Notes: a model not told the origin generated them from the sequence alone. Positions 38,207-42,643 are shown, numbered from the stretch's first letter. The stretch: DNA of 64,000 nucleotides from Escherichia phage JLBYU32 (OK272490.1); one strand, 5' to 3'. Numbers and translations: made by a program.

Positions 38207-38397
38207 TACTCAATGTCAATAAGTTCTTGTGCAATGCTTTTCAGATTACCTTTCAAGAAAACCTTCTCAGAACCTGAAAGAGATGAATTGTCAATTAACC
38301 TGTTCATTCTCTCAAACAACTTCTGCTTACGGTTCTTAATAGTTTCCTTTGAAGCACCTTTCATCATCGCTGCATGGGTTCTTCCACGGTGACTCAT
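38188..38397 (-). CDS. hypothetical basic protein
   Basis: 69 aa ORF. Confidence 0.3.
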   Translation of the reverse strand: MSHRGRTHAAMMKGASKETIKNRKQKLFERMNRLIDNSSLSGSEKVFLKGNLKSIAQELIDIEYWRHQK

Positions 38398-38458
38398 AAG
38401 CCCTCCTATACAAGATGTAGTATAAGGTACTCTTCCCTGAGCACCTTGTCAATACTAA

Positions 38459-39010
38459 TTAGTGTACCTCATACCAGCTTTTACCAACCTTACCAGTACC
38501 TGTAACAAGTGTTTCTTTCTTAAGACCTAAGTTCTTAGAAGCTTGTCCATAATACCAGTCAGTAACTGCTTTCACTTCTGCCGTCATACTTTCTGGACAT
38601 TCCCAACTCGTCTCGTCGTGATAGGAGCACAATAAACGAGCACCTATAGCTGGCTTGCGACCGTTCAACTTCATCAAACCTTCGTCAATCATACGACGGC
38701 AAGCAAGGTTAATTGCTTCATTCTGAACCTGCGCCTCACTACCCATAAGTGTGTAATTCAATAACTTATGTGGAGATTTACACCATAACCACGCTCCAGC
38801 GACCTGAATGTACCCACCCTTAGCGATTGCAGCACTCTTGCCGAAAACCTCTTCTAATGCCTTCTTAGTGGCCTTAAAATCGGCTTCTAAGTTATCAAGT
38901 AGCTTCTTAATCTTTGGTAGACGCATATAGTAGGTCTGCTTAGTCAATGCACCTTCTTCTGTAGAAGCTGCCTTAATGGTTTTGGCAAACTTCTCATCAC
39001 CTGCACCGAA
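38459..39010 (-). CDS. DNA polymerase family A, C-terminal segment (motif B remainder and motif C)
   Basis: FGAGDEKFAK matches second half of Pol A motif B (T7 gp5 YGAGDEK); SYHDE resembles motif C; track ORF begins at TTG. Confidence 0.7.
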   Translation of the reverse strand, partial: FGAGDEKFAKTIKAASTEEGALTKQTYYMRLPKIKKLLDNLEADFKATKKALEEVFGKSAAIAKGGYIQVAGAWLWCKSPHKLLNYTLMGSEAQVQNEAINLACRRMIDEGLMKLNGRKPAIGARLLCSYHDETSWECPESMTAEVKAVTDWYYGQASKNLGLKKETLVTGTGKVGKSWYEVH

Positions 39011-39824
39011 CAATACATCTGGTCAATACACTCGCAAGGTGTACCAGTTCTCTTATGAACTTCTCCGCATTTCTACGGAGTGTCGGACTATATCACGTAG
39101 TAGTAATACTACCGTTGCACTTGGGAATGGTCATTAGCTTACCACCCTACTCTACTCAGTTCATACATTAAGTATGCTTTTCGATAGTCTCTGAACGTTT
39201 CTCTGTTAGGAACTCTAAAATACTATTGTTTACTAAGGTATGCAATTGCTCTCTGCATATTATCTACACTGTCTGAGAACAAGCCAAGACCTCTGTTACA
39301 GTTGTGGCACAACATCCCTCTCACCTTACCTGTTTTGTGGTCATGGTCAACAACAAGTTTAGCTTTATGTCTTGAGCCATTCATGATGAAACCTTCACCG
39401 CCACAGATTTGGCACTTATGGCCACATTTACTTAACAACTCTTCAACCTCTTCTCTTTCTAGGCCGTAAGTCCTTAAGTAGTAGTTCTTTACCCTTCCCT
39501 TTTCTCCACATGCAGAACTGCAATATGTCTGTCTTGCTGTTCTAGGTGTGAATTGGTTATTGCAGCTTGGACATATCTTTTCTATGACACGGTTTGCTGC
39601 TCTCCTGTCTACTTCAAGAACGCAGTTTCTGCAACGTTTTTGATTGTACTGGTATGGCTTAAACTCTTCGCCACATCTGGAACAAACTCTCTCTTTATAA
39701 CCTACCATTGTCTCTCTCCCATTTCTACTATAGGAGTCCTAACAGAGACTTCGCTGCTGATTACCATATCTTTTAAGACTTAGGCTTCCAGCAATTCACA
39801 ACGTTTTACATGCGCCACTGACGC
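39011..39824 (-). mobile_element. Intervening sequence in DNA polymerase gene carrying HNH endonuclease ORF (group I intron candidate or free-standing insertion)
   Basis: Pol A motif B is split: upstream segment ends ...RKKAKNGIY, downstream starts FGAGDEK; about 0.8 kb between contains HNH ORF; exact splice sites not determinable by eye. Confidence 0.5.
39223..39708 (-). CDS. HNH homing endonuclease
   Basis: 161 aa; multiple CxxC pairs and VDHDHKTGKVRGMLCHNCNRGLG HNH core. Confidence 0.7.
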   Translation of the reverse strand: MVGYKERVCSRCGEEFKPYQYNQKRCRNCVLEVDRRAANRVIEKICPSCNNQFTPRTARQTYCSSACGEKGRVKNYYLRTYGLEREEVEELLSKCGHKCQICGGEGFIMNGSRHKAKLVVDHDHKTGKVRGMLCHNCNRGLGLFSDSVDNMQRAIAYLSKQ

Positions 39825-41963
39825 ATAGATACCATTCTTAGCCTTCTTACGGCCTTTAGTTATCTCGTGAAGAAGTTCCTCATCCTGTGTCTCTCTACAA
39901 CGGATAATATCTTCTTCTTTGTTCAATGCAAAATAGATACTGTTAAGTGTATGCGCATCAGTACCTGTGTAGACTTCATACAAATCATTATCAGCATCGT
40001 AACGACAATATTTATCAGCCTCTGGATTTAGGTACTTATCAAGATGCTTGCAGTAGTATCGTCCATCATCCTGTTTAGTGAACTCTACAAACTCTTTACC
40101 TTCAGTTACCGCTTTGGTGAAGTCTTTATCACCCATAAAGTTACACAGTAAAACAAGCTGTGCAGAGTTCTGGTCAACTGAAACGATATTAGTCCCTTCC
40201 TCGCAAATCCACACCTCCCTCATAGGCGCTCCATAGACAGCAGCACCAGACGGCACGTTTACAATACCATATTGTGTCATACGCCCAGTTGAAGTACCAA
40301 ACACCATTGCACCAGCACTAAGGCGACCATCTGGACGAATCTGGTTCAGCCAACCTTTCTCGTCATCCTTTGAGTTCTCAATAGTTCTGCGTCGGTGCAT
40401 CAAAGTATAGTACTTAGCAATCTTCTGTCCAAGTTCACCTTCAATCGTATCATAAGATGATTCAGTAAGTTTTGGTGAAGTACGGATTAAGCAAGGCTCA
40501 AGCAAATCTGTGTACTTCTTCACAGACCAGTTATGCTCAATGTACTGGACACCTTCATGCTCAACATAGCTCAAACCACACCGCTCAACCATTTCCTGCC
40601 ATTTAGGATGCTTGGTAATCATCTTTTTGTTGTCTTTGAAACGACAAACCTTAACAGGACGACCATCTGAGTCTTTCTTGTAGTTCCAGTCATCTGGAAT
40701 CCAACCAACTGATTTCAAGTAGTCTTTAACAACTGCTACCTGAGTCATACGAGAAACTTCAAACTCAATTGGTGTATATGGTGCATCAATCAATCCTGTG
40801 TAGCGACTTGACTCAAGTTCAAAGTGGTTAACAACGTGGCTGTTATAGTACTTCACAGTTTTGACTGTTTTTACTGGCTTCCAGTCTTTGCATTTCTTAC
40901 CAATCTTTGCATTCAACTCATTGCAAATTGCACGAGCATCCTTCATTGCTACAAAGCCTTCCTTGTACTCTTCACCAGTTACAGAGTTGGTTGGTGTATA
41001 GCAATTTCTCTTTTCAATGTTAAAAATCTTTGTAGTTGGCTTACCAAATGGTTTGATTTCATAAGTCTGCATCTCACCATTACGCACCTGCTGACGATAC
41101 TTCGTCTTAGGGTACTTGGTAATTCTTTTCAGTCCATCTGCATGACCAAATGCTTCAACATACTCATTCCAAGCTTTTGCAAACTCTTCTCCAGTGACTT
41201 TACCTTTGGTCTTAATAGTTGGAGGTAGATGTGGTTCAACCTCTGAAGCAAGCTCATTAGTCAACTTGTCAAGTTCCTTTACATGGAACTCCATAAGCTC
41301 TTTATCAGCTTTCCAGCCATTAATAGCTTGTTGACTCATCCAGAAAGACGTCTCTTTAGCTCGCATGTAGGTTTCATAAGTGTCTATGCCACACTTCTTA
41401 AGCTTGAGATACTCGTTATCAAGTGCCCGTTTAGTTTTGGCGTTAATACGGATATCTTCTACAACACGAGTGAAGATTTCTGCATTCCACACACCCCAAT
41501 GTTCAATCTCTGGTTTACGAACACCAACACGAGCACCCCATGCAGCCAAACCATGAGCACCTTTATAACCCTTTGGAGTTGGTCTATCCATCCACTGAAC
41601 ACGAGACTGGATAAGAGAATCCTGAAAGAAATTACTCCACGGTTTACACTTTGGATTATCAAAGTTCCATAAATCAGGTGCAATGTGATTGAAAACCCAC
41701 CAGTCATAACCGAGACCATTATGGATGCAAAGACGTTTTGCCTTTAACGCAAACTCAATGCCTTCACGTAAGCCACCCTTAATGTACTTGGTATACTTGT
41801 GACCGAGGATAGGCTCATCTGTAAAGACCCATACAGGCGGCTCTTCATCGTCAGATTTATAGTCTGCGAAAGCCATTACGTGCACTTTAGTGAACTCAAG
41901 GAGTAAACCATCAGTTTCTGTATCACCAACTAAATGTAAGTTTTTAAAATCTACGTTTTCCAT
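39825..41963 (-). CDS. DNA polymerase family A, N-terminal segment (3'-5' exonuclease plus motif A)
   Basis: Exo I motif DTETDGL; motif A-like VSVDQNSAQLVLL; ends within motif B; start set at ATG 41963 (MENVDF) with agagggag SD. Confidence 0.75.
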
Positions 41964-42136
41964 TTTTACTCCCTCTAAAATCATTAACCTCATACATTAC
42001 TGCAAAAAATTATAAAAAGCAAGTTGACAATGCACTTGACAAGGTGTTAATCTTTGTGAAGTGGGTTTTTACTTAAAAGGTTACTTAACAGTTTAACTAT
42101 ACAGATACTTTAAAATTCTTAAAAGATTATTTAATA

Positions 42137-42178
42137 GCTTTTAAAAAGCTTTAAAGTATAACGTATAGAATACGTTAA
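42137..42178. promoter_or_regulatory. palindromes in divergent intergenic region (operator or origin-like)
   Basis: Near-palindrome agcttttaaaaagct and inverted repeat aacgtat-aga-atacgtt in AT-rich 260-bp region between divergent gene blocks. Confidence 0.3.
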
Positions 42179-42220
42179 GATAAAAGATTAAAACTTAATA
42201 GTTACTTAAAAGAGGCTTAC

Positions 42221-42643
42221 ATGCAGAAAATGTTTGTTCACCCAGACATAGCTGACTTTGTTAGAGCTTTGCAGAAGTTGGAAGAACTTGACATTGCTGC
42301 TCAACGGGAATATGCTCACCATCACAGGAGAATGGTTGATATACAACATGAAATAGAGTTGTCTGAAAACTATGAAGATGACTTAAAATGCTCTGTATTT
42401 GAGCATATGAAAGATGTTGCTACAGCGAGACGTAAAGCTAAAGACACAGTTGCTTTACTAGATTCTCTTAAAAAGAGGTTGCAAAGTGGTACAGACCTGT
42501 GTAATCTAGCATCACTGATTAACGATGTTGAAACTTCTTGGGATAGGCACTATTATCCACGTTCTGAAAAGACACTTGACTTTTCTTCATCCGAAAACTT
42601 AAAATGTTCTAGAAAGAAACTTAACCAACTGAGAGAGAAATAA
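42221..42643 (+). CDS. hypothetical protein
   Basis: 140 aa ORF with aaaagagg SD. Confidence 0.45.
   Translation: MQKMFVHPDIADFVRALQKLEELDIAAQREYAHHHRRMVDIQHEIELSENYEDDLKCSVFEHMKDVATARRKAKDTVALLDSLKKRLQSGTDLCNLASLINDVETSWDRHYYPRSEKTLDFSSSENLKCSRKKLNQLREK

Follow-up and report, generated by a model that had tools for sequence, protein, structure and literature searches.

How does a phage make a DNA polymerase whose gene is broken within one of its conserved motifs? The question arises in Escherichia phage JLBYU32 (OK272490.1), a 64,000-nt stretch of which (here called the window) encodes on its minus strand a family A DNA polymerase that is split inside motif B by an insert bearing a further open reading frame (ORF). 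A first reading of the sequence by a model (here the original prediction) had offered two answers, i.e., a group I intron able to splice itself, with a homing endonuclease, or a polymerase expressed as two polypeptides. Our analysis strongly favors the former: judging from the sequence, the polymerase gene very probably contains in its motif B an 805-nt group I (IA-like) self-splicing intron that carries a homing nuclease gene.

The polymerase junction and the ribozyme

The two halves of the interrupted polymerase were present on the minus strand with the motifs and ends originally described. The upstream ORF (41993..39780, 737 aa), which contains DTETDGL and SVDQNSAQL, runs to ...RKKAKNGIY, continues for 14 out-of-context codons (ASVAHVKRCELLEA), and stops; the downstream ORF (39013..38459, 184 aa) opens with a TTG followed by FGAGDEKFAK. 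The polymerase start annotated in relatives is the ATG at 41963.

The junction was placed by aligning the window with two related alleles, those of HMD-P8, which has the insert but no ORF, and FO1a, which is intron-less. The FO1a empty site reads AAG AAT GGC ATC TAC GCC CTG TTA TTT GGA GCC GGA GAC GAG (KNGIYALLFGAGDE), and one junction only reproduces it, with exon 1 ending ...TAT GCG T (39821) and exon 2 starting TA TTG TTC GGT (39015). Because this single junction matches FO1a, the intron spans 39820..39016. The insert of roughly 0.8 kb had thus been correctly recognized and measures exactly 805 nt, the limits suggested for it (39011-39824) being off by 4 to 5 nt at each end. The insertion point, in the stretch coding for motif B (the O-helix), follows base 1 of the codon that corresponds to Leu764 of Escherichia coli Pol I. 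The spliced junction is predicted to read ...TATGCGT^TATTGTTC... (the caret marks the splice point), with NGIYALLFGAGDEK as the predicted peptide across it; the FO1a-type intron-less junction is ...TACGCCC^TGTTATTT....

Joined in this way, the exons form 2730 nt in frame that code for 909 aa with a single terminal stop. They read AKNGIYALLFGAGDEK in motif B, identical to intron-less relatives, and the expectation that the two halves would together recreate this motif was therefore borne out. The Pfam profile DNA_pol_A matched each half weakly and under its cut-off of 34.3 bits (profile positions 93-185 in the first ORF, 17.6 bits; 218-380 in the third, 27.2 bits). The threshold was passed only by the spliced product (55.2 bits), in one aligned stretch (709-906) that crosses the junction at codon 725. 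The spliced polymerase belongs to family A, with DTETDGL, VDQNSAQL, and RKKAKNGIYALLFGAG directly readable in it. Since the junction restores both the frame and the exact motif B, and the same insert occupies this site in about 96 phage records (this and other record counts are rough and include RefSeq/GenBank duplicates), a chance arrangement can be excluded.

The insert itself was compared with the group I intron covariance model RF00028, a check that had been proposed at the outset and that succeeded in the relatives rather than in the window. The window gave two collinear half matches of 24.3 bits (39832-39677, P1-P6) and 15.4 bits (39271-39063, P7-P9), both below the curated gathering score of 50 bits. 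The orthologous ORF-less alleles scored above it, HMD-P8 with 62.2 bits (E = 1.9e-15, model positions 1-253) and NJ12 with 60.3 bits. These ORF-less cores are about 97% identical to the window core, and NJ12 differs from the window by a handful of positions. Together with P1, the terminal G, P10, the exact rebuilding of the gene, and the existence of three allelic states, all described below, the ORF-less matches uphold the proposal of a group I intron with a homing endonuclease.

The ORF occupies the loop that closes an extended P6 (UCUCUGUUAGGA-CUC ... GAG-UUCCUAACAGAGA); P6/P6a is the usual ORF location in phage introns, e.g., those of ΦI, W31, and Pf-WMP3 (PMC3428280). No P2 is found in the RF00028 model alignment. 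A 63-nt insertion, placed after the 5′ strand of P7 and before the 3′ strand of P3, folds as two hairpins, P7.1 and P7.2, and is invariant among the alleles. Hairpins P7.1/P7.2 are a mark of subgroup IA. By its predicted structure the intron would be IA-like.

The structure, including the P3/P7 pseudoknot and P10, was counted over six alleles from which the ORF had been excised. Its 90 pairs are 99.8% paired, vs 29 to 47% when the partners are slid by 1 to 3 columns. Compensatory changes from U-A to C-G are seen at the base of P6 and within P8, and changes from G·U to G-C in P3 and P5. An alternative P8 register (loop AUU) was rejected, the U-to-C and A-to-G changes of three alleles being compensatory only in the GUAGU/ACUAC register.

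The splice sites carry the pairings of a group I intron. P1 (AUGCGU^CAGUG-GCGCAU) has 6 bp, ends in a U·G pair (U39821) at the 5′ splice site, and is invariant in the six alleles. The 3′ splice site reads ...GAUG^UAUUG, with 39016 as the terminal G of the intron, and intron bases 1 to 5 (CAGUG) form a 5-bp P10 with the first five bases of exon 2 (UAUUG, 39015-39011). In the comparison with intron-less homologues that had also been proposed, and in which FO1a fixes the junction, the junction protein proved to be the same in 10 of 10 alleles, including the four intron-less ones (FO1a, Sf14, Moogle, and radambza). The codons are another matter: all six intron-bearing alleles read TATGCGT^TATTG and all four intron-less alleles TA[CT]GC[CA]C^TGTT[AG], and the two groups differ at precisely the synonymous positions from which P1, with the U of its U·G pair, and P10 are built. 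Because all intron-bearing alleles share these codons and all intron-less ones differ, the P1 and P10 bases are fixed solely where the intron is present.

Table 1. Positions of the polymerase exons, the predicted intron, and its parts in the window
Feature	Position	Strand	Content	Basis
DNA polymerase (family A), exon 1	39821..41993	-	3′-5′ exonuclease motif DTETDGL, motif A, first half of motif B (...RKKAKNGIYA plus first base of Leu764)	ORF list; partial Pfam DNA_pol_A match; alignment to intron-less FO1a; frame check
P1 exon strand (AUGCGU)	39821..39826	-		Sequence reading; invariant in 6/6 intron-bearing alleles, different in 4/4 intron-less alleles
Predicted group I intron, 805 nt	39016..39820	-		Two RF00028 half matches; ORF-less orthologous alleles above gathering; structure on 6 alleles
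5′ ribozyme segment	39733..39820	-	P10 5′ strand (39820-39816), internal guide GCGCAU (39815-39810), P3 5′ strand, P4, P5, 5′ arm of extended P6	RF00028 matches; folding; structure count on alleles
515-nt insertion, P6 terminal loop	39218..39732	-		Absent in HMD-P8; 20 nt in NJ12 and NS7; degraded in VpaE1
Putative homing endonuclease gene, 161 aa	39223..39708	-		Pfam PF02945; PDB alignments; PHROG 307; pN/pS
3′ ribozyme segment	39016..39217	-	P6 3′ arm, J6/7, P7 5′ strand GACUAU (39189-39184), P7.1, P7.2, P3 3′ strand, P8, P7 3′ strand AUAGUC (39091-39086), P9 with GAAA loop, P9.1, P9.2, terminal G (39016)	RF00028 matches; folding; structure count; LNA6 identity
DNA polymerase, exon 2	38459..39015	-	Last two bases of Leu764, LFGAGDEKFAK..., motif C, stop	ORF list; Pfam; FO1a alignment; frame check; structure count

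The intron-encoded nuclease and its alleles

The ORF within the insert had been read as an HNH endonuclease. A nuclease ORF of 161 aa is indeed found at the place indicated, but it is of another type. At E <= 0.01, Pfam gave solely Endonuclease_7 (PF02945; 70.9 bits vs a cut-off of 23.6, E = 8e-20), at the C terminus of the protein (residues 79-159), the canonical HNH profile PF01844 remaining unmatched; PHROG 307, "endonuclease VII," also matched (E = 4.9e-43). For the C-terminal half, the PDB yields alignments to Hpy99I (E = 2e-7) and to T4 endonuclease VII (E = 0.012). The zinc and catalytic residues are all kept, i.e., C99, C102, D121-H122-D123-H124, R130, C134, C137, and N138, for which the counterparts in T4 endonuclease VII are C23/C26, D40-H43, R54, and C58/C61-N62, with Hpy99I aligned as well. 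According to Fang et al. 2018 (PMC6083498), the Asn at the center of HNH is missing from the Endo VII motif. The predicted protein is hence an endonuclease of the endonuclease VII/DHHRN type, within the His-Me finger (ββα-metal) superfamily, and not one of the HNH family proper. Its N terminus has two zinc-ribbon-like CxxC...CxxC modules (C9/C12/C26/C29 and C46/C49/C63/C67). A Shine-Dalgarno (SD)-like GGGAGAG stands 6 nt 5′ of the nuclease ATG; a hairpin (CUCCUAU/AUGGGAG) that might mask this ribosome-binding site was discarded as no better than shuffled sequence (z = -0.86).

The relatives display the insert in several states. The window genome belongs to Felixounavirus, its closest record being that of Salmonella phage FSL SP-107 (97.3% over the whole 3.5 kb), and 259 phage records match the polymerase region, nearly all from Felix O1-like myoviruses (Felixounavirus, Mooglevirus). 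A 1451-bp query sorted them into three length classes, i.e., the whole insert (about 40 records), matches of about 905 to 911 bp, which are ORF-less, and matches of about 640 bp, with no insert and a single polymerase coding sequence (CDS). Among the roughly 96 records that carry the intron, about 40 thus have the ORF and about 56 are ORF-less, and the intron-less state is that of the majority of records. Intact ORFs are found in the window, FSL SP-107, EC6, LNA6, and Si3, FSL SP-107 having in addition a 6-nt TACTAC expansion in the P8 region. In VpaE1, a 21-nt deletion and a frameshift split the ORF in two. NJ12 and NS7 have lost it cleanly, with 20 nt left that span the former leader and stop, and HMD-P8 and Meda have a shorter P6 with no trace of it. 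With the empty site of FO1a, Sf14, Moogle, and radambza, a single genus displays the series of a homing cycle: empty site, intron plus nuclease, decaying nuclease, and nuclease-free intron.

A second nuclease gene was encountered in these comparisons. Directly 3′ of the polymerase in FO1a, HMD-P8, Meda, NJ12, and Si3 lies a free-standing HNH(-AP2-like) homing endonuclease gene (in comparison stretches L014, 886-1389; L015, 816-1328; L016, 3332-3844; and L013, 102-455). No such HNH-AP2 gene occurs in the window (38398-38458) or at this place in FSL SP-107, and the whole 64-kb window contains no homologue. The gene is a second mobile nuclease polymorphism beside the polymerase, and it could drive movement of the ORF-less intron ("collaborative homing"). 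Salmonella phage ST11 (MF370225) has its polymerase annotated as two overlapping CDSs, with just 257 bp matching round the junction; this looks like a deletion or an assembly/frameshift problem rather than an intron.

Sequence divergence was used as a measure of constraint. When the window was set against the LNA6 and Si3 alleles, saturation of synonymous sites was seen both in the exons on either side (proportion of synonymous differences [pS], 0.75-0.81) and in the nuclease ORF (pS 0.72-0.75), where nonsynonymous differences are few (pN 0.11; dN/dS about 0.03-0.05, with dS saturated). The 207-nt 3′ ribozyme segment of LNA6 is 100% identical to that of the window, but the flanking ORF is 77% and exon 2 78% identical; for Si3, identity in the ribozyme segment is 94%. 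Both the intron RNA and the nuclease protein appear to be constrained. Exchange between intron lineages plays a part as well: LNA6 combines an Si3-type ORF body with a window-type ORF 3′ end and 3′ core, and looks like a recombinant of two intron lineages.

Exchange of sequence around the intron is also suggested by the polymerase gene. Identity to Si3 is 96 to 99% up to about CDS nt 1800 and then 70 to 80% to the end; with Si3 and FO1a taken together, the same first ~1800 nt at 96 to 99% are followed by an abrupt fall to 70-87%, which extends across the intron site as far as the stop. Against HMD-P8, identity is at least 97% up to the junction (nt 2173) and 66 to 88% thereafter. This mosaicism is compatible with, though no proof of, nuclease-stimulated exchange accompanied by co-conversion of the exons.

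These data bear on whether the nuclease is still at work. The intron might splice while its nuclease is decaying or inactive in homing, or serves mainly as a splicing helper, and the relatives show that such decay happens, by deletion and frameshift in VpaE1 and by clean deletion in NJ12, NS7, and HMD-P8; moreover, a homing cycle is expected to finish in such decay when an allele has become common. For the window allele, however, we consider this unlikely. Its ORF is intact and preceded by an SD-like leader, the zinc and catalytic residues of endonuclease VII and Hpy99I are all retained, purifying selection is strong relative to the 82%-identical LNA6/Si3 lineage (pN and pS as above), and the sharp identity breaks round the intron are as expected of nuclease-driven exchange.

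Splicing or two polypeptides

From the anatomy, the group I match, the restored frame, the allelic series, and the conservation, we infer splicing, nuclease activity, and homing along the following lines. The polymerase gene would be transcribed from the minus strand as a single pre-mRNA, in which the exon bases AUGCGU would pair with the intron guide GCGCAU to form P1, with the U·G wobble where the RNA is to be cleaved. Free guanosine, docked in P7, would attack after U39821, P10 (CAGUG with UAUUG) would align exon 2, and the freed 3′-OH would then attack after the terminal G39016. The ligated mRNA would give one 909-aa polymerase reading ...AKNGIYALLFGAGDEK... in motif B. From its P6 loop, the intron would supply the 161-aa endonuclease VII-type (DHHRN) nuclease with its two N-terminal zinc-ribbon modules. 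In mixed infections, this enzyme would presumably cut, close to the insertion site, those polymerase alleles of related phages that lack the intron, and repair would copy the intron and flanking exon DNA into the cut allele (homing).

Several observations weigh against a self-splicing intron at this locus, or at least temper the case for it. A search of the whole window with Rfam at gathering returned tRNAs only, the intron lying below the cut-off, because the 515-nt ORF insertion in the P6 loop splits the model match. Covariation is thin: the six cores are 97% identical and most pairs are invariant, double changes occur in just two pairs, and 42 of 500 shuffles reach the same count, so that the six-allele structure count is a matter of consistency rather than of strong covariation. 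The P5 loop of the window is UAAA (also in FSL SP-107), vs a GNRA loop (GUAA, GGAA) in the other alleles. Identity in the ribozyme could stem in part from recent recombination and not from constraint. Finally, in the literature searched, no experimental demonstration of splicing or cleavage was found for the Felixounavirus element.

The last point can also be taken in favor of a split polymerase, in which the intron has lost splicing or never had it and an N-terminal exonuclease/partial polymerase and a C-terminal fragment assemble noncovalently. Both halves are open frames, and many GenBank records do annotate two "DNA polymerase" CDSs. We nevertheless regard this half of the original prediction as very improbable. 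Exon 2 has neither an ATG nor an SD sequence, and the terminal AUG of the intron is out of frame, so that separate translation of exon 2 was rejected; its TTG "start" is merely the Leu765 codon of motif B, and the gene is interrupted within the O-helix. The core of the ORF-less alleles passes the group I model. Against a background of saturated neutral sites, this core and its exon pairing partners have stayed conserved, which would make no sense in a dead intron. A 268-nt ORF-less version would, in addition, have no reason to last in about 56 records. An intein, or a free-standing nuclease gene inserted without an RNA element ("fractured gene"), deserves virtually no credence: a nuclease ORF between the halves of a conserved enzyme resembles such arrangements, but a stop ends the polymerase frame after 14 codons of the insert, the nuclease ORF starts independently, and no intein family is among the Pfam matches. 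The nuclease-free 268-nt insert, in turn, also breaks the gene and by the model is itself a group I intron. The sequence refutes both readings.

Related elements and neighboring features

The Felixounavirus polymerase intron is already known rather than new. Among the intron-encoded DHHRN endonucleases listed by Fang et al. 2018 (PMC6083498) are the Endo VII-motif proteins of JH2, EC6, FSL SP-010, and 2 JES-2013; FSL SP-010 and EC6 share both the element and its site with the window, at 96% identity over gene, intron, and ORF. The genome announcement of Meda describes a nuclease-free intron within the gene for DNA polymerase (PMC6486253); the CDS in its GenBank record (MH586731) is joined from two pieces, and its span agrees with a 268-nt intron that has the same splice sites. 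Meda differs in being ORF-less and in having the downstream free-standing HNH gene, whereas the window represents the intact-ORF form without that gene. The original Felix O1 paper reports no introns, which fits the empty site in FO1a.

A related arrangement was noticed in an unannotated record of the T7-like Yersinia phage AKS2022HT54S_phi, where a 680-nt group I intron (comparison stretch L008, 1020-1699) with a 144-aa Endo VII-type ORF lies in polymerase motif B; Berlin and YpP-G are T7-like Yersinia phages with this intron type in Fang et al. 2018 (PMC6083498). Shared with the window are the location in motif B of a family A polymerase, a nuclease 49% identical over residues 43-159, a P1 U·G, a terminal G, and an RF00028 match that is weak and interrupted by the ORF. 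The Yersinia site is, however, 11 nt farther upstream, within the codon for Phe in AKTF^IYG (AKTF^IYGFLYGAG; E. coli ~760 vs 764), the ORF reaches the P7 strand and not P6 as in the window, and the phage is a podovirus, not a myovirus. Homology of the two ribozymes was considered and rejected, the sequences being about 49% alike after ORF removal, and they were treated as different introns.

With a 49%-identical nuclease sitting in an only distantly related intron 11 nt away, nuclease gene and ribozyme may have had separate histories. A nuclease lineage specialized on the O-helix might have moved between unrelated ribozymes and phage families (myovirus, podovirus), with the intron region as a hotspot that makes the 3′ third of the Felixounavirus polymerase gene mosaic. 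We put this forward tentatively, as less likely than not.

Beyond the Felix O1-like phages, the nearest ribozyme is found in Escherichia phage vB_EcoP-ZQ2 (Gamaleyavirus, N4-like; comparison stretch L009, 460-703), as a group I intron without annotation. It is 71% identical over 75% of the core, scores 91.8 bits with RF00028, and lies between two "RNA polymerase" CDSs; Erwinia phage MIF8 has a similar partial ribozyme match beside an RNAP2-like gene.

Among known polymerase introns, those of SPO1, SP82, Bastille, and Pf-WMP3 (I-HmuI, I-HmuII, I-BasI, I-PfoP3I) are at E. coli position 674, that of phiL7 at 676, and those of ΦI and W31 (I-TslI) at 881 (PMC3428280). The SPO1, SP82, Bastille, Pf-WMP3, and ΦI/W31 introns resemble the predicted IA-like one described here: they are self-splicing group IA (IA2) introns at conserved catalytic sites of a family A polymerase, with the ORF looped out from P6/P6a (PMC3428280). 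They differ in their sites (674 or 881, not motif B), in encoding canonical HNH nicking enzymes, and in that their splicing and cleavage have been experimentally shown. As to the nuclease, F-CphI of cyanophage S-PM2 (the founding DHHRN homing endonuclease), T4 endonuclease VII, and Hpy99I share with it the pattern CX2C...DHDH...R...CX2C-N, and the catalytic motif is C-terminal in the DHHRN homing clade (PMC6083498). F-CphI is 43% identical to the window nuclease over residues 72-160. It is, however, free-standing beside an intron; of the other two, endonuclease VII resolves Holliday junctions and Hpy99I acts as a restriction enzyme, whereas the window nuclease is encoded inside an intron and has the two extra N-terminal zinc-ribbon modules. 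It is a candidate for biochemical characterization among the Felixounavirus Endo VII/DHHRN intron nucleases.

The td, nrdB, and nrdD introns of T4 are group IA introns, as that of the window would be, in essential genes of nucleotide/DNA metabolism, with optional ORFs in peripheral loops and an intron-plus/minus polymorphism. They differ in their host genes, in their nucleases (the GIY-YIG enzymes I-TevI and I-TevII and the HNH enzyme I-TevIII), and in having a P2 helix, of which the window intron has none. Since the work on SPO1 it has been known that phage polymerase genes can hold group I introns with homing nucleases, and the element of the window is real but an ordinary selfish element, a conventional intron, probably of group IA, that opens no new question. 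The main practical outcome is a set of exact splice coordinates with which to correct the two-gene annotation. Most GenBank records for these phages give the polymerase as two genes plus an "endonuclease," which a joined CDS (39821^39015) should replace, and many of the affected phages are candidate therapy or biocontrol agents.

Upstream of the polymerase, an AT-rich gap at 41850-42300 (GC 0.29-0.30) coincides with a change of sign in GC skew and separates the polymerase (minus strand) from the genes that run on the plus strand from 42221; it is probably a divergent promoter region. A promoter/terminator scan of 38300-42300 was uninformative, with four promoter-like sites vs 7.7 expected and one terminator-like site vs 2.2 expected, neither being above expectation. 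Elsewhere in the window, 23 tRNA genes form a dense array at 1577-6494 on the plus strand (Rfam, gathering threshold). Large tRNA arrays are typical of Felix O1-like genomes, Felix O1 itself having 22.

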